This document shows, one piece after another, positions 5,502 to 25,149 of a stretch of DNA of 35,777 nt. Position 1 is the stretch's first letter; each line of letters opens with the position of its first letter. The stretch covers positions 1-35,777 of the IMG/VR virus record IMGVR_UViG_2778261389_000005. One strand, written 5' to 3'. This stretch comes from a virus (taxonomy: Duplodnaviria; Heunggongvirae; Uroviricota; Caudoviricetes). The notes beneath the pieces were generated by a model that saw nothing but the letters and a program-made list of their open reading frames with translations, was not told the DNA's origin and ran no database searches. The translations under genes were made by a program, and so were the position numbers.

Positions 5502-5641
5502 GTGAGATCCTCATTTTTGGGTGTTAGAATCCCCGGACCATTGATAGCGCCCATTGGGTTAACTTTGGTTTTAATGTTGTTTCCGGTGTAACTTTGGTCG
5601 GTGAGGCCGGACATGGCGGGCCCACTTCGGTGGGCTTTCGC

Positions 5642-5929
5642 TTAACTGACGGCTACGATCGCCTCATTCATAAAATCTTGCTTGTATGTACGGTAGGTTC
5701 CCCAGCCGGCGTAATCGCTATCGCTGATTTTTAGTGCCAGCAAGCTGATCTCCTCAATGGCGCAGTGCGGGCAATCAAACTTGCCAAGCACATAGCCACC
5801 GTCGAGAATGACTGTTGTTTCACCGTTTGTAGTTGAGTGAATAACGCCTGATACTTTCTTATCGCAGTTGAATGCAGCCACTTCTTTATTCACTGCTTTC
5901 AGGTTCATTTCGATTTTTACGATTTCCAT
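5642..5929 (-). CDS. Hypothetical early protein
   Basis: 95-aa ORF with GGAG ribosome-binding site 7 nt upstream of ATG. Confidence 0.5.
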   Translation of the reverse strand: MEIVKIEMNLKAVNKEVAAFNCDKKVSGVIHSTTNGETTVILDGGYVLGKFDCPHCAIEEISLLALKISDSDYAGWGTYRTYKQDFMNEAIVAVS

Positions 5930-18257: not shown

Positions 18258-18391
18258 CATTCGAATCCTATTTTGCCGATCACCTCCGCGTTCGTTGGCA
18301 ACGATTGCGCTTATACCACTTTCCGGGCTCCGTGCTGACGGATTACCGAATACTGAAGAACTACATCAAAACCATAGGCGGTGCAGTATGA
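18254..18391 (+). CDS. Small ORF between ninG and Q (45 aa)
   Basis: ATG overlaps ninG stop (ATGA) with strong AGGAGG RBS; stop overlaps Q start (ATGA). Confidence 0.3.
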   Translation: MTFESYFADHLRVRWQRLRLYHFPGSVLTDYRILKNYIKTIGGAV

Positions 18392-19077
18392 ATACTCAAT
18401 TTCTCGAATACGTGCGCCAGCAGTTGATGGTGGCCACCGCCGATTTAAGTGGTGCGACGAAAGGGCAGTTGATGGCGTGGCTTGAAAACGCGCAGTTCGA
18501 TACGGGAACGTTTAAACGTAAAAAGCCTCGAGTGCTGGATGAAGTGACCGGGGAAATGATTACGCTGGATAACCCGCCAATACCGGGCAAGCAGTCGCAT
18601 ACCAAGGGTTCGCATATTCCCCTGGTGCAGCCGGTTGAATACTCCAGCGCATCGTGGCGCCGCGCACTGATGTCACTCGAAGAACACCAGAAAGCGTGGC
18701 TGCTATGGAACTATAGCGAGAACGTGCGCTGGTGCTATCAGGTGGAAATCACTCAATGGGCGTGGGCAGAGTTCCGGGAGCAGCTCGGCGCGAAGAAGGT
18801 AGCCGGCAAAACGATGGAGCGCCTGAAGAAGCTTGTCTGGCTCGCGGCTCAGGACGTGAAAGCAGAGCTGGCAGGGCGTGAGACGTACGAATATCAGGCG
18901 CTGGCGTCGCTGGTTGGCGTAACGCCAAAAAACTGGTCAGAGACCTTTACTGACCGCTGGGTTGAGATGCGCAGCATCTTCCTGCGACTGGATAGCGGGG
19001 CTTTATTGCAGGTTACGCGATCACGTTCACAACAAAAGGCGACAAATTTAGACTCAAGTCTTGCAAAACTGGATTGA
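18388..19077 (+). CDS. Putative late-gene antiterminator (Q-like), assigned mainly by position
   Basis: 229 aa from ATG 18388; located after ninG and directly upstream of a promoter, terminators and lysis genes; sequence family not recognised with certainty. Confidence 0.5.
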   Translation: MNTQFLEYVRQQLMVATADLSGATKGQLMAWLENAQFDTGTFKRKKPRVLDEVTGEMITLDNPPIPGKQSHTKGSHIPLVQPVEYSSASWRRALMSLEEHQKAWLLWNYSENVRWCYQVEITQWAWAEFREQLGAKKVAGKTMERLKKLVWLAAQDVKAELAGRETYEYQALASLVGVTPKNWSETFTDRWVEMRSIFLRLDSGALLQVTRSRSQQKATNLDSSLAKLD

Positions 19078-19089: not shown

Positions 19090-19143
19090 TCATGTAAATC
19101 TGATATCGTCGCCATAGCTTCGTAGGTCGACAAAGAATTAAGA

Positions 19144-19174
19144 GCCTCGCCATCGTGCGGGGCTTTTTTATTTG
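19144..19174 (+). terminator. Rho-independent terminator (tR'-like)
   Basis: GCCTCGC-CATCGT-GCGGGGC hairpin followed by TTTTTTATTTG. Confidence 0.55.
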
Positions 19175-19346: not shown

Positions 19347-19664
19347 ATGGCAAAGCGTATGAATGACGACCACAAAATTGTAGGCCTGTCCTGGTTAGTC
19401 CTGCTCGGCATTGCATGCTGGGGCGGTTTAGTTCGCTACCTGATCGACGTAAAGCAGAATAAAGCGAAATGGAGCTGGATAAACGCGCTGGCACAGATCG
19501 CTGTCTCCGGCTTTACCGGTTTGATTGGCGGGTTGATAAGCGTGGAGAGTGGGTTGAGTTTTCACATGATCCTTGTCACGTCCGGCATTAGCGGGGCGAT
19601 GGGTTCAGTGGCTCTGACCTATTTCTGGGAACGCTTGACGGGGATGAAGAATGCAAACCAGTGA
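19347..19664 (+). CDS. Holin (three predicted transmembrane segments)
   Basis: 105 aa from ATG 19347 with GGAGGTGAT RBS; three hydrophobic helices; directly upstream of lysozyme. Confidence 0.7.
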   Translation: MAKRMNDDHKIVGLSWLVLLGIACWGGLVRYLIDVKQNKAKWSWINALAQIAVSGFTGLIGGLISVESGLSFHMILVTSGISGAMGSVALTYFWERLTGMKNANQ

Positions 19665-20091
19665 TAAAGGCATTGCCCTGATCAAAGAGTTCGAAGGTTG
19701 CAAGCTCACTGCCTATCAGGACAGCGTCGGCGTTTGGACGATCGGTTATGGCTGGACTCAGCCCGTCGACGGGAAACCAATCCGTGCCGGGATGACAATT
19801 AAGCAGGAAACGGCAGAACGCCTGCTGAAGACAGGAATGGTCAGTTACGAAAGTGACGTGTCACGACTGGTTAAAGTTGGCCTGACTCAGGGGCAATTCG
19901 ATGCCCTGGTGTCGTTCACGTATAACCTCGGTGCGCGGTCATTGTCGACATCGACTCTCCTGCGAAAACTCAACGCCGGAGATTACGCTGGTGCAGCCGA
20001 TGAGTTCCTGCGCTGGAATAAAGCTGGTGGGAAGGTGCTGAATGGGCTGACACGTCGGCGGGAGGCAGAGCGAGCTCTGTTCCTGTCATGA
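19651..20091 (+). CDS. Phage lysozyme (endolysin, glycoside hydrolase family 24-like)
   Basis: [30 protein letters not shown] motif typical of T4/P22-type lysozymes. Confidence 0.9.
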
Positions 20092-20558
20092 TTAGCGCAC
20101 TGGTTAAGCGTTACTGGCTGCAGTTGCTGGTGCTGGCGTTAATCGGCGCACTGGCTTTCTTCGTGAACCACTACCGCGACAACGCCATCACTTACAGAGA
20201 CCAGCGCGATAAGGCCACTGAGAAACTCCTCCTGGCGACCGCCACCATTAAAGACATGCAGACCCGCCAGCGTGATGTCGCTGCACTGGATGCCAAATAC
20301 ACCGGAGAACTGGCTGATGCGAAAGAAACCATTGAGCGTCTGCATAGCGATGTCATTGCTGGCCGTAAGCGGCTGCAGCTCAACGCAAACTGTCCCGCGA
20401 ACGGAACGACCAGCACCGGCGGCCTGGGCGATGTTACCGGCCCCCGACTTACTGACTCCGCTGAACGGGATTATTTCACCCTCAGAGAGCGAATCGTCAC
20501 AGTGACGAAACAGGTTGGATATTTGCAGGAATACATCAAAGAGCAGTGCTTAAATTGA
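20088..20558 (+). CDS. Rz-like i-spanin
   Basis: 156 aa with N-terminal transmembrane segment and coiled-coil body; follows lysozyme; contains embedded +1-frame ORF. Confidence 0.8.
20317..20505 (+). CDS. Rz1-like o-spanin lipoprotein embedded in Rz
   Basis: [22 protein letters not shown]: signal peptide with lipobox LAVSGC, proline-rich mature part; entirely within Rz in another frame. Confidence 0.75.
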
Positions 20559-20590: not shown

Positions 20591-20995
20591 ATGCAAATAG
20601 ATCAAGAATACCTTAAAGGTTTGCTCGAGGCTTTCGAGGCATCGGATTCACCTGATACCGATATTATTCGATTAAAGGATTTAGGGTTCAATTGTGAAAC
20701 TGACACATTTGTGTTTCATATGCGTTTGCTTGAGGATAGAGGGCTGATTATCAGGAGTGATGGAGAGCCCGGCTTTGGTGCTATTCAGTCTTTAGACGGA
20801 ATGACTCACTGGGCTGTAATGCCCTTGCGATTGACCGCGATGGGGCATGACTTCTTGGATGCTCTCCGTAACAAAGAGGTTTGGGCAACATTAAAAACCG
20901 GATTCAAAGATGCCAGTATGGGCACGCTGATGACAGTTTCGAAGGAGCTGTTTAACCGAGCTCTAGCTAAGCAACTTGATAAAATGTTCGACTAA
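20591..20995 (+). CDS. Hypothetical protein
   Basis: 134-aa ORF with GGAGGGG RBS, followed by terminator. Confidence 0.5.
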   Translation: MQIDQEYLKGLLEAFEASDSPDTDIIRLKDLGFNCETDTFVFHMRLLEDRGLIIRSDGEPGFGAIQSLDGMTHWAVMPLRLTAMGHDFLDALRNKEVWATLKTGFKDASMGTLMTVSKELFNRALAKQLDKMFD

Positions 20996-21018
20996 CCGCC
21001 TACGGGCGGTTTTTTATT
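20996..21018 (+). terminator. Rho-independent terminator
   Basis: CCGCC-TACG-GGCGG hairpin followed by TTTTTTATT. Confidence 0.55.
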
Positions 21019-21071
21019 GTCAACTTTATGAGCAAACTGATCTTAATTACTGTAACTAGGTGGTCAATGAT

Positions 21072-21710
21072 ATGGCAACGCTTAAGGACCTTTCCAGTCA
21101 GTTAAGACAGCTGCAGAAGCAAATACCGTTTGCGACTGCCCAGGCTATGACTAAAGTGGTTCGCCAGATAGAAGCGGCCCAAAAAACAGCATTTGAGCGG
21201 AATCTGGATAATCCAACACCTTTTACAGTTAAATCGGTTGGGTCAGTTGGTGCCAGGAAAAACAGCCTTCGTGCGAAGGTGTTTGTTCGTGATACTGCTG
21301 CTGGTTACCTTGAACCCTTCGAGTTCGGCGGAGAGCACAAGCTTAATGGTAGTGCTTTGCTTAACCCGAAAGACATAAAGCTTAATAAATACGGCAACCT
21401 GCCGCGTAATAAGCTCTCTCAGCTCAAAGCAAAGGAAAATGTATTCGTAGGTGAGGTGGATGGCGTTAACGCTGTCTGGCAGCGTAAGAAACCGATGAAA
21501 GCTAAGAAGCGACGGGCCAAGCGCTCCGCTAATGGGACGCGAAGACCGAAACGTAAACAGCGTTCTCCAAAGCTTTTGATCCGGTTTGGTGATGCGCTAC
21601 CTGTGACTCCAGTGCTGGGGTATATGGATAGGGCCCGTACCATGGCGAACGCACTGCTACCGTCTGCTTTAAATCAGGCGATAGCAGAAGCCATCAGGAC
21701 GGCAAAATAA
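21072..21710 (+). CDS. Hypothetical protein with highly basic segment
   Basis: 212 aa from ATG 21072 (AGGTGG RBS); KKPMKAKKRRAKRSANGTRRPKRKQRSPK stretch. Confidence 0.45.
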   Translation: MATLKDLSSQLRQLQKQIPFATAQAMTKVVRQIEAAQKTAFERNLDNPTPFTVKSVGSVGARKNSLRAKVFVRDTAAGYLEPFEFGGEHKLNGSALLNPKDIKLNKYGNLPRNKLSQLKAKENVFVGEVDGVNAVWQRKKPMKAKKRRAKRSANGTRRPKRKQRSPKLLIRFGDALPVTPVLGYMDRARTMANALLPSALNQAIAEAIRTAK

Positions 21711-21720
21711 AAGCAGTAAC

Positions 21721-22224
21721 TTATAAGTTAATTTCGCAAGCTTTTATGAAGCTGTTTACTGCAGTTGTCGATCCAGAAACATTGGCTGACATGGAATGCT
21801 GGTTTCCGCCATCCTTTGTTTGCACACCAACTAACACTTTGGATTTCGCCCCCTGAAGCTGCTTAAGCACTGTTTTTAGTTGGTCCGCGTCATCCGATTG
21901 AATCTGGAGGCTCTGAACATTACGTCTTGAAAGGGTAGCATCGAGCTTCACTGCGGTATTCCCGTCGACCTTCATTATCAGGTCCATTGGTACCTCTGAT
22001 AGTGATTCGGTGCTTTTATCCATTTCAACGTATGCCGCCGATAGCTTTTCTTTAGTGCAGTCAAACACAATGGCGCCATTGTCGGATGAAACCTCGCCAA
22101 GCATCATTGCTTTCTTACCACCAGAGAAAAGGTCATCTTCAGTATTAGTTACCCACTGGGCATGAGCAATTGGTGATGCCAGCACTGCGGCTACGAAAGT
22201 TATTTTGATTATATTGTTACCCAT
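21721..22224 (-). CDS. Secreted protein of unknown function (signal peptide), opposite-strand accessory gene
   Basis: 167 aa from ATG 22224 with AAGGAG RBS; N-terminus MGNNIIKITFVAAVLASPIAHA-Q resembles a Sec signal peptide. Confidence 0.55.
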   Translation of the reverse strand: MGNNIIKITFVAAVLASPIAHAQWVTNTEDDLFSGGKKAMMLGEVSSDNGAIVFDCTKEKLSAAYVEMDKSTESLSEVPMDLIMKVDGNTAVKLDATLSRRNVQSLQIQSDDADQLKTVLKQLQGAKSKVLVGVQTKDGGNQHSMSANVSGSTTAVNSFIKACEINL

Positions 22225-22367
22225 TACATTCTCCTTGTATTGAATAGGAATAATCATAGTCGGAGCGAATGGTCGAAGCCATTAAAAAAATGGGTCCTTC
22301 CTGAGACTTTTGTAAGGTACGGGCATTGCGCGCCGCGGTGTTTTCCTAGCTACAACTTTCAGATTTG

Positions 22368-22515
22368 TGTCCCATGTCCCACCTCTGGCGATCATTACGG
22401 ACACCTCGCCAGCTCTGGCTATTCCAGTTTATTCCAGTGGGACATTCTGGTGGGACATGGCAAAAATGTCCCAGGCGAATGTCCCACCCCAGAAAATGTC
22501 CCAGGTGATGTCCCA
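22368..22515. repeat. Array of TGTCCCA / TGGGACA repeats upstream of the small terminase gene (cosB-like candidate)
   Basis: Direct copies at 22368, 22375, 22467, 22480, 22497, 22509 and inverted copies at 22438, 22451; last copy overlaps the start codon. Confidence 0.5.
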
Positions 22516-23084
22516 TGACCACGATGAACCAGAGTCAGTACGCACAACATTCAGGTGTGGATCGCAAAACAATTGGTCGGTGGATTAAAGCCGGGCGCTT
22601 CATTGTGATGGACGGAGACCTGATTGACGTAGAGGCCAGCGATGCGGCATTGAAGAAAAACCGCGATGGCAAAGACCCGCGCGCCTCGAACGCGAAGAAA
22701 AAGAAAACTCCCGTCGTTAGCGATAACGATGATGACGGTGATGAAATCAATAAAACTGTCCGCCAGATAATGCTCACTGAAGGAGCAGATCTTTCGAGAG
22801 AGGAAGCGGGACGTATCCGCGAGAATTACATGGCCCTGCAGGCAAAGCTGCAGTATGAAAAAGACAGCGGCCAGCTTATTGAGCTGACAGCAGCCGAGGA
22901 GGTTTTATTCAACGCCTTTCGCCAACAGCGTGATGCCTGGCTTAACTGGCCGTCCAGGGTGGCGCCGCTAATGGCTGCTGATCTGGATGTACCGGCGGAC
23001 AGGATGACAGAGGTGCTGATTGAACATGTCCACAAACACATCTCAGTCCTCGGAGAGCCAGAGTTTAACCCGGCAGAAGATTGA
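22515..23084 (+). CDS. Terminase small subunit (Nu1-like, HTH)
   Basis: N-terminal HTH (QYAQHSGVDRKTIGRWIKAG); position immediately upstream of large terminase. Confidence 0.6.
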   Translation: MTTMNQSQYAQHSGVDRKTIGRWIKAGRFIVMDGDLIDVEASDAALKKNRDGKDPRASNAKKKKTPVVSDNDDDGDEINKTVRQIMLTEGADLSREEAGRIRENYMALQAKLQYEKDSGQLIELTAAEEVLFNAFRQQRDAWLNWPSRVAPLMAADLDVPADRMTEVLIEHVHKHISVLGEPEFNPAED

Positions 23085-25149
23085 GCGTCTTGAATTAAGC
23101 GTCCGCAAAGGCTGGACACCCCCGCCGCGTATCAGTGTGCCGCAGTGGGCAGATGACTATCGTAAGCTGGCAAAAGAGGCTGGGAGCACTTCGGGAAACT
23201 GGGAAACATCGACGGTAGAAATTGCCCGCGGACCGATGCTTGCCGCGACGGAGTCCGGGGTTCATATCATCACTGTAATGTGCTGTACCCAGTTGATGAA
23301 GACAGCACTGCTGGAAAACCTTTTTGGCTATTTTGCCCACCTCGATCCTTGTCCGATACTGCTGCTGCAGCCGAAAGAAGAAGCCGCTGAACAGTTTTCG
23401 AAAGAGCGTATTAGCCCGCTGGTAAGGGTGACGCCGGTACTGCGTAAAATCATCGGTGATTCGAAACAGAAAAGCTCGAAAGAAACCATTCTTTACAAGG
23501 CATTCACTGGCGGATTTCTGGCGCTGGCGGGTGCTGGTAGCCCTGATAACCTTGCGCGTCGTCCGATTCGTGTCCTGCTGGCGGATGAAGTGGACAAGTA
23601 CCCGATAACCCGCGAAGGCGATCCAATTGCGCTGGCCGAAGAGCGTACAGCGACATTTGGCCTGACCTGGCTGTCTGTACGCGCCTGTTCGCCGACGGTG
23701 GAGGATGAGAGCCGCATTGCTGACAGCTACGCCGACTCCGATCAGCGCCGGGCATCTGTGGTTTGCCCGCACTGTGGCCACCGCCAGTTCCCCGACTTTT
23801 TCAAACACGTTCAGTGGCCGAAAGAGGGAGATAAACACCTGACTAAATCGGCGATGCTCTATTGCGAATGCTGTGGTAGTGGCTGGTCCGAAGGACAGCG
23901 CCTCAGAGCTCTGCACACTATTCGATGGCATCAGACGCGCCCATTTGAGTGCTGCGGGGAGCGGCACTCACCGCTGATGGATTATGACCTTGCCTGGCGG
24001 GCGGCAGACGAGGGCAGCGTTGAAAAGGTCTGGCAATGGTCAGAGTCGGAACGGCATGCGGTCTATCGCGCAATCTGCCCCTCCTGTGGAAAGGAGGCAG
24101 TCGATAACCACCACGCGGGGTACCAGGCATCCAAGCTTTTCAGCCCCTGGCAAAAAGATAAGCCGTCGGATATTGCGAAAAAATATATCGATGCGAAGGG
24201 CGATCCGGATAAGGAACAGGCGTGGTGGAATACCCAGATGGGGCTTCCGCACCGACCTAATCATGGGAAACAGCTCCCTGTTGATGTTCTGCTGGCGCGC
24301 CGGGAAATATTTCCGGCCGTCGTTCCGGACGGGGTGGCATTGTTAACAGCTGGAGTTGATACCCAGGACGATCGCTTCGAAATTACGATCACCGGCTGGG
24401 GGAGAGATGAAGAATCGTGGTCGGTCGCGCATGACGTTATTTATGGTGACCTTGAGACGGAAGAACCCTGGAAGCGACTGGATGCATACCTGAAACAGAT
24501 CTGGCGACGTGGTGACGGGCGCGGCCTGAATATCATGGCAACGTGCATGGACTCCGGTGGCCACCATACGCAGAAGGTATACGAATTCGCCAAAGAGCGT
24601 CTTGGCCGTCGTGTCTGGGCAATTAAGGGGGAGTCTGCACAGGGAGGTAAACGCAATCCTGTCTGGCCGACCAAACGACCATCATCGAAAAGCAAAGCCA
24701 GTTTCCGCCCTGTCATTCTGGGGGTTAACTCAGCGAAAGACGTGATACGCGGTCGCCTGCATCTTGAGCCACCCAAACCTGGCGCCGCCGCTGCGGGTTA
24801 TATGCATTTTCCTGACGATCGCGATCTCGGGTACTTCAATCAGCTGCTGGCGGAGCGACTGGTTTACAAAGTCATTTCCGGGCAGCGGTACAGTATCTGG
24901 GAAGCAATACCAGGACGAGCTAACGAAGCGCTTGACTGCCTCGTTTACAGCTATGCCGCGCTGTGCGGTCTCAAACATATGGGGTTAAAACTCAACGTCC
25001 GGGCCGCCAACCTCGAAGCCGATCCGGATAAGTTCCTGCCAGCGCCAGTTGGACAGGAAGAAAAAATCAATTACGAGCTGCCGGGTGCGGTTATTGAAGA
25101 ACCAGCGCCGGTCAAACGTAAGCGAATATCGCAACTCCTGCCGAAATAA
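23020..25149 (+). CDS. Terminase large subunit (lambda gpA family)
   Basis: 709 aa; colinear motifs with lambda gpA including ATPase region and C-terminal NEALDC; start overlaps small subunit gene. Confidence 0.9.
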   Translation: MNMSTNTSQSSESQSLTRQKIERLELSVRKGWTPPPRISVPQWADDYRKLAKEAGSTSGNWETSTVEIARGPMLAATESGVHIITVMCCTQLMKTALLENLFGYFAHLDPCPILLLQPKEEAAEQFSKERISPLVRVTPVLRKIIGDSKQKSSKETILYKAFTGGFLALAGAGSPDNLARRPIRVLLADEVDKYPITREGDPIALAEERTATFGLTWLSVRACSPTVEDESRIADSYADSDQRRASVVCPHCGHRQFPDFFKHVQWPKEGDKHLTKSAMLYCECCGSGWSEGQRLRALHTIRWHQTRPFECCGERHSPLMDYDLAWRAADEGSVEKVWQWSESERHAVYRAICPSCGKEAVDNHHAGYQASKLFSPWQKDKPSDIAKKYIDAKGDPDKEQAWWNTQMGLPHRPNHGKQLPVDVLLARREIFPAVVPDGVALLTAGVDTQDDRFEITITGWGRDEESWSVAHDVIYGDLETEEPWKRLDAYLKQIWRRGDGRGLNIMATCMDSGGHHTQKVYEFAKERLGRRVWAIKGESAQGGKRNPVWPTKRPSSKSKASFRPVILGVNSAKDVIRGRLHLEPPKPGAAAAGYMHFPDDRDLGYFNQLLAERLVYKVISGQRYSIWEAIPGRANEALDCLVYSYAALCGLKHMGLKLNVRAANLEADPDKFLPAPVGQEEKINYELPGAVIEEPAPVKRKRISQLLPK

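Follow-up and report, generated by a model that had tools for sequence, protein, structure and literature searches.

An optional antisense cargo gene next to the terminase genes of a temperate enterobacterial phage, with a predicted periplasmic product

Why should a phage carry, on the strand opposite to its neighbouring late genes and just ahead of its terminase genes, a gene whose product appears to be secreted? The question is posed by a viral sequence of 35,777 nucleotides (IMG/VR record IMGVR_UViG_2778261389_000005), the whole of which is called the window below. The window is a mosaic of RecET, O/P-like replication genes, an antiterminator, lambda-like head genes and Mu/SfV-like contractile tail genes, and the phage is a temperate, enterobacterial one with lambda-like heads and a Mu/SfV-like contractile tail. 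Our answer, which we hold at a probability of about 0.85 as a structural and genetic description, is that the gene is a moron encoding an exported periplasmic protein; the best overall account, in which this description is blended with superinfection exclusion, falls a little short of even odds. The genes of the region are as follows.

19347-19664, plus strand: holin (LydA-type)
19651-20091, plus strand: lysozyme
20088-20558, plus strand: Rz
20591-20995, plus strand: DUF2513 gene
21060-21710, plus strand: phrog_1924 gene ("minor tail protein"; E 7e-63)
21721..22224, minus strand: moron coding sequence, 167 aa plus stop, for the precursor of the exported protein (phrog_19473; RefSeq WP_001472855.1)
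22515-23084, plus strand: terS, small terminase
23020-25149, plus strand: terL, large terminase

The original prediction had described a gene for a 167-aa protein, lying on the opposite strand to its late neighbours and between the lysis cassette and the terminase. Every neighbour is indeed on the plus strand and the gene order is right, but the DUF2513 and phrog_1924 genes separate the moron gene from Rz. In each of about 50 loci from IMG/VR and from genomes, the gene runs antisense, converging on phrog_1924 and diverging from terS; in another phage type it directly follows Rz.

The gene and its cargo slot

The minus-strand open reading frame that ends at 21721 offers a first ATG at 22257, which would give a product of 178 aa. 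This start was rejected as it lacks a Shine-Dalgarno sequence and falls within a conserved TATGAT element. The ATG at 22224 is preceded by a strong ribosome-binding site, AAGGAG (22236-22231), at a spacing of 6 nt, which makes the 167-aa form credible, and RefSeq annotates the same form in an E. coli prophage as a hypothetical protein (WP_001472855.1), so the predicted length stands. The protein is matched end to end by phrog_19473 (E 1.6e-99), to which PHROGs assigns no function. It has 33 homologue clusters in Enterobacterales at 48-99% identity, and a profile search of 1.84 billion representatives (a 50%-identity library) returned 272 clusters, mostly stand-alone proteins of about 165 aa. 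The identical protein occurs on at least 1000 contigs from E. coli, Citrobacter, Enterobacter and Kluyvera. Pairwise dN/dS values are about 0.06-0.09 (for example dN 0.114 and dS 1.48 between loci L036 and L009), and the gene is real and under purifying selection, with dN/dS about 0.08.

Its known occurrences are confined to prophages and IMG/VR contigs, in hosts of many genera that include non-clinical sources. Among 5426 complete E. coli genomes it is present in only 23, and the flanks are present in 59. The gene was not found among the sequenced phages of INPHARED by DNA search or tblastn, and literature searches for WP_001472855.1 and for IalB in prophages returned nothing relevant.

Alignment of occupied, empty and other-cargo loci delimits the insert that carries the gene, between the phrog_1924 stop codon and a cos-proximal block.

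21711..22290, minus strand: moron cassette, 580 bp

Homology with the empty sites resumes at window position 22291 (TGGGTCCTTCC...), and the junctions are exact. The state of the slot was surveyed in 80 viral contigs sharing the small terminase at 88-100% identity: 33 have the gene in it, 31 have nothing there and 12 have other cargo, and the gap between phrog_1924 and terS measures 806-857 bp when occupied by the gene versus 239-250 bp when empty. The other cargo, which is mostly antisense too, comprises a 95-aa phrog_8894 protein, a 90-aa phrog_36812 protein, a 237-aa signal-peptide protein, a 69-aa Cys-rich protein and a 117-aa protein. Citrobacter phage phiNP and Serratia phage BZS1, the nearest sequenced phages, have the slot without the gene, phiNP with only 170 bp there. 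The gene of the 237-aa cargo protein (L200 2033-2746; L206 2032-2745) lies on the late strand, and its product has a signal peptide of its own and no Pfam or PHROG match.

Exchange at this site is evident in the L036 and L009 pair, where portal, terL and terS are virtually identical (dS <=0.008) as against the dS of 1.48 in the moron gene; the mosaic boundary between the two loci is sharp and coincides with the cos region. The GC content of the moron gene is 44.6%, compared with 52.3% for terS, 55.4% for terL and 55.3% for portal. Set against the moron definition (Juhala/Hendrix, as summarised in PMC3594210), the gene is absent from the same site in close relatives and deviates in base composition. 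From its presence or absence at one site, its low GC and a conserved promoter-like element, we conclude that it is an optional, horizontally exchanged cargo cassette, that is, a moron.

Transcription signals and flanking DNA

The DNA upstream of the start codon contains four elements that are retained across alleles, here given in order from the start codon outwards.

22231..22236, minus strand: Shine-Dalgarno AAGGAG, spaced 6 nt from the ATG; every aligned allele has AAGGAG or AAGGGG here
22253..22258, minus strand: putative -10 element TATGAT; TATnAT is invariant in 9/9 diverged alleles while its flanks vary, and is also present in L045-type phages
22277..22282, minus strand: putative weak -35 element ATGGCT, with an 18-nt spacer; ATRGCW is kept at a fixed distance across alleles
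22284-22290, minus strand: T7 tract preceding the putative -35; a T-tract is kept across alleles

A scan with the sigma-70 consensus called no promoter upstream of the gene, the hexamer pair matching at 8/12 positions, below threshold, and the putative -35 at 3/6 positions of TTGACA. It is thus from conservation that we infer a promoter belonging to the gene itself. Downstream, the window allele has an intergenic space of 10 bp, in which neither a significant hairpin (z -0.2) nor a match in the terminator scan was found; in alleles L036, L039, L050 and L045 the stop codon is immediately followed by a GGGG..CCCC hairpin and its U-rich tail. A homologue in a tail module (L059) is accompanied by a strong intrinsic terminator (5717-5736) inside the tail operon. 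The family travels as classical morons (PMC3594210), and the signal set of the window copy is incomplete.

On the terminase side of the cassette, about 75 nt (22291-22365) do not vary between loci whose slot holds the gene, is empty or carries other cargo, and this block contains a GC-rich palindromic stretch, GCGCGCCGCGG. Beyond it, seven exact ATGTCCCA repeats in both orientations lie within 22374-22515, where chance would be expected to supply one per whole window. The interval 22291-22515 is probably the cos region. Loci with a different small terminase (L042 and L054; 57-61% identity) have GTTACC-type repeats instead, and because the repeat type differs along with terS, the repeats at 22374-22515 are consistent with candidate terS-binding (cosB-like) sites. 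Part of the block recurs in another setting: L045 5880-5930 resembles window 22291-22345, with about 55 nt in common (GGCGCGCAATGCCnGTnCCTTACAAAAGnTCnCAGGAAGGACCCATTTTTT), and lies directly upstream of L045's copy of the gene. The L045-type phages have a different packaging module (an HNH endonuclease and another terminase type). The shared segment contains a GGTCC..GGACC hairpin between A and T runs and may mark a recombination boundary or act as a bidirectional terminator.

Several features of the late-gene side were also observed. The phrog_1924 protein has a very basic C-terminal stretch, KKRRAKRSANGTRRPKRKQRSPK, and its gene is the last on the late strand before cos in phiNP, BZS1, Rhodobacter RcCronus-like phages and others; its mosaic history matches that of the moron gene and not that of the head genes. 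The DUF2513 gene has a low GC content (44.2%), is found in only some related loci and is followed by a terminator-like hairpin (20994-21011; AACCGCC-TACG-GGCGGTT and a T-run); it could be another moron, in this case on the late strand. Inside Rz, in another frame, a 77-aa reading frame (20272-20505, plus strand) with a lipobox-like LAVSGC motif probably encodes the Rz1 o-spanin, and the BZS1 annotation likewise has an embedded Rz1. Two Rfam small-RNA matches were noted. An isrJ match (19093-19166, plus strand; 68.7 bits versus a gathering score of 37) directly follows the antiterminator-like gene (18295-19077) and lies ahead of the holin gene, at the expected place of the lambdoid pR'-tR' short leader transcript. 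The other, to isrB, is in the early region (5543-5640, plus strand) and barely above its gathering score (38.2 bits versus 35).

The predicted exported product and its fold

A Sec/SPase I-type signal peptide and a soluble periplasmic protein are predicted from the sequence, the former by a heuristic analysis of n-, h- and c-regions rather than by SignalP.

22159..22224, minus strand: signal peptide, residues 1-22 (MGNNIIKITFVAAVLASPIAHA); SPase I cleavage predicted between AHA and QW, before Q23
21724..22158, minus strand: mature domain, 145 aa, 15.5 kDa, pI 4.95; beta-rich, with two helices

In the window protein the n-region bears K7, the core is hydrophobic and SPIAHA precedes QW in the cleavage region. 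An alignment of 95 family members has Ala at -1 in 79/95 and at -3 in 62/95, the -1 position lying two residues ahead of an invariant Trp, and the presequences have a median length of 21 and a median core Kyte-Doolittle value of 2.64. A lipobox was found in 0/95 members. The earlier claim of a signal peptide is thus borne out by this heuristic check, both in the n/h/c features and in the AxA motif conserved among the 95 members. Cysteine occurs at position 56 in 95/95 members and at position 163 in 94/95, with exactly two cysteines in 94/95; two conserved cysteines in an exported protein suggest a single structural disulfide, C56-C163. The most conserved segments are the first strand and its loop (WxTxxEDDLFSGGK), FDC56, RRN100-102, AKSK, the QTKDGGNQ loop and the C-terminal helix, and the variable ones are the loops 46-49 and 69-77 and the segment 103-118.

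AlphaFold2, run on an alignment of 22 sequences, gave a model of nine beta strands and two helices (pLDDT 84.7, pTM 0.77), in which the signal peptide alone is disordered (pLDDT <50), as expected. The predicted fold resembles that of Bartonella henselae IalB (PDB 3dtd; PF06776). A second likeness is to the N-terminal domain of PDB 8z5n chain A, a polar flagellar T-ring protein that is, by its length, probably MotY; the two have no sequence similarity, and the phage protein comes without the OmpA-like C-terminal domain and without a flagellar context. IalB and the phage protein are both Sec-exported envelope or periplasmic proteins of about 150 residues, by prediction in our case, and in both families a Trp opens the first strand and a V-D strand motif is present. 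The two nevertheless differ in sequence (13% identity) and in their cysteines, the invariant C36, C45, C106 and C111 of IalB contrasting with C56 and C163 here.

Sequence comparison places homology to IalB at the level of the possible. Neither the window protein nor any of the 95 scanned members reaches the gathering score of PF06776, and 3dtd was not among the results when PDB sequences were searched with the family-profile HMM. A longer relative, P0066, has a sub-threshold PF06776 match (E 0.002; 18.7 bits versus a cut-off of 22.1). IalB homology was also tried by hhalign of the family against a 3dtd-based alignment and not accepted: the signal peptides alone were aligned, at a probability of 30%, which with so shallow an IalB alignment (Neff 2.6) is a weak negative. 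Other searches gave little. With Pfam at E<=0.1 the window protein yields only a weak DUF7767 match (E 0.03), dismissed as it is absent in the other 94 members, and the Pfam scan of the 95 members gave no family match. NCBIfam held nothing relevant, PADLOC returned a noise-level match only, and no sequence similarity to known superinfection-exclusion or defence families was found in PADLOC or PHROGs. Foldseek against the PDB gave nothing significant (best TEAD and KirBac, TM-scores <0.35), and BFVD returned only uncharacterised T4-like phage proteins (KP15, RB16; TM about 0.5), which are functionally uninformative. On the evidence of the model, then, the protein is predicted to have an IalB/MotY-N-like fold within a distinct, undescribed family. 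Such a fold suggests a periplasmic, envelope-associated binding module and little more, since the molecular function of IalB domains is itself unknown (PMC7327166; 10.64898/2026.01.22.700529).

Relatives and possible functions

Homologues recur beside tape-measure genes, or one gene away from them, and the layouts are of at least three kinds. In prophages of Dryocola and related ones that share the tail type (L059, L068 and L069), the homologue is on the late strand, downstream of the tape-measure gene and ahead of the DNA-circularisation gene, in L061-L063 it is immediately upstream of the tape-measure gene (phrog_28), and in a Devosia locus (L006; 29% identity) it is convergent with the tape-measure gene. 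Single-protein scans for more distant viral contexts added nothing new.

Homologues are also found in chromosomal, non-phage contexts (L232 6001-6516 and L230 6001-6501), one of them between recA and alaS and the other, in Acidiphilium, with a peroxiredoxin gene, GtrA-type glycosyltransferase genes and motAB-like genes nearby. Such neighbourhoods suggest that the ancestral role was a housekeeping one in the envelope. The domain is present in two to four tandem copies in P0173 (655 aa), P0151 (474 aa), P0161 (331 aa) and P0097 (266 aa), proteins that look alphaproteobacterial as judged from composition only; P0097, with an N-terminal half of major capsid protein E and a C-terminal half of the moron-protein domain, is probably a chimeric call. 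With chromosomal members in housekeeping contexts in Alphaproteobacteria, and with these multi-repeat forms, the phage genes look like a captured bacterial periplasmic protein.

How might such a protein act? A weak sigma-70 promoter belonging to the cassette would drive its leftward transcription separately from that of the late operon, and on that account in lysogens. The precursor would be exported by Sec and cleaved after A22, C56 and C163 would pair, and the acidic 15.5-kDa protein would remain soluble in the periplasm and bind another envelope or periplasm-exposed component. The role that we favour, though tentatively, is that of a prophage-encoded superinfection-exclusion factor, which would interfere with an infecting phage as it crosses the periplasm or injects its DNA, for example by binding tail-tip or tape-measure proteins once these are ejected, or a periplasmic factor of the host that those need. 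Exclusion is favoured by the tape-measure-adjacent relatives, by a phage-centred spread over many host genera and by precedent. T4 Spackle and P1 Sim are periplasmic exclusion proteins with cleavable signal peptides and set a precedent for an infection block in the periplasm. Like the moron protein, as predicted, they are phage-encoded, Sec-exported and soluble in the periplasm, but no match to them in sequence or fold was found. A Spackle-like inhibition of a tape-measure lysozyme domain was considered and rejected, the adjacent tape-measure proteins having no such domain.

HK97 gp15 is a superinfection-exclusion moron encoded beside the tape-measure gene, and relatives of the moron gene occupy the very slot of HK97 gene 15 (PMC3594210). 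In both systems a cassette of deviating GC, putatively autonomous in ours, occurs in some relatives and is missing from others, the product is directed to the envelope and homologues exist in non-phage bacteria, but gp15, a member of the YebO family, is small and lies in the inner membrane, to be contrasted with a predicted soluble, beta-rich periplasmic protein, and no sequence similarity joins them. A more specific and rather improbable version of exclusion is that the family is a new one of soluble periplasmic exclusion factors that intercept the tape-measure/tail-tip complex of contractile-tailed temperate phages, or a host partner needed by it. The repeated adjacency of relatives to tape-measure genes would follow from such interception. 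There is, however, no covariation with the tape-measure allele: gene alleles at 98-100% identity accompany tape-measure proteins that are 58-100% identical. The chromosomal homologues of Alphaproteobacteria point to a general envelope role over a phage-specific one, and the tail-module homologues, being co-oriented with the late genes, may be produced in the lytic cycle as well; both points count against exclusion.

The position of the gene had also been likened to the bor locus of lambda. The likeness in place, antisense to the late operon and between the lysis genes and cos/terminase, holds as one of position only, and kinship to Bor does not. Lambda Bor is a 97-aa lipoprotein; the present product is 167 aa long, has an SPase-I-type site in place of a lipobox, is predicted to be soluble and has no Pfam Bor match, and two extra late-strand genes intervene between Rz and the moron gene. 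Both are optional cargo genes with an envelope-directed product, Bor being a small outer-membrane lipoprotein and a lysogenic-conversion product of lambda (PMC3594210).

This position lends some support to host-fitness or virulence conversion, in which the periplasmic protein would alter the envelope of the lysogen (serum or stress resistance, adhesion, invasion or cell-wall complexes) and which we consider possible but unlikely. The IalB-like predicted fold argues in the same direction, IalB-domain proteins being envelope proteins linked to invasion or polar growth (PMC7327166; 10.64898/2026.01.22.700529) for which a conversion role has been proposed, as do the homologues in housekeeping contexts such as recA-alaS, which suggest a general envelope function that a phage could co-opt. 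However, the protein is neither Bor nor a lipoprotein, its homology to IalB is not demonstrable by sequence and IalB offers no molecular function to borrow. The carriers, moreover, are mostly environmental or commensal isolates and few among complete E. coli genomes (23/5426), and conversion provides no obvious rationale for the repeated tape-measure adjacency. Late transcription is to be expected of the tail-operon homologues, co-oriented as they are with late genes, and this, with the nearness of the window gene to the lysis cassette, would suit a periplasmic helper of the lytic cycle that affects lysis timing, modulates the spanin or endolysin, or protects progeny from debris. Progeny protection is known from T5 Llp, which guards virions from inactivation on receptor-bearing cell debris. 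We nonetheless find a lytic helper quite improbable, given that in the window, as in about 50 related loci, the gene runs antisense to the late operon, that it is dispensable (the slot is empty in about 40% of close relatives, and phiNP is without the gene) and that the protein resembles no known lysis regulator. The window allele might, finally, be a functionless passenger, a captured bacterial periplasmic gene kept by linkage and poorly or not expressed. Its weak promoter match, its loss of the terminator hairpin present in other alleles and the nature of the slot, a cargo hotspot tolerating many unrelated inserts, would fit with this, but strong purifying selection (dN/dS about 0.08) across synonymously saturated alleles, the conserved -10-like element and Shine-Dalgarno sequence and the spread of an identical protein over at least 1000 contigs from several genera make it very unlikely.

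The moron description thus presents the locus as a typical uncharacterised moron, ordinary phage cargo rather than a surprise: the type of element is well known, and what is new is an uncharacterised family without a Pfam model. If expressed in lysogens, the gene would join the phage-borne genes by which the enterobacterial envelope is remodelled. The cos-adjacent slot is a well-defined natural cargo site, and its occupied, empty and otherwise loaded versions in near-identical phages are ready isogenic comparisons. With a phenotype, be it in exclusion or in envelope fitness, several hundred protein clusters would gain an annotation, and the role of the poorly understood IalB-like fold could become easier to guess; were the family indeed one of exclusion factors, this would be the first defined molecular activity for an IalB/MotY-N-like fold.
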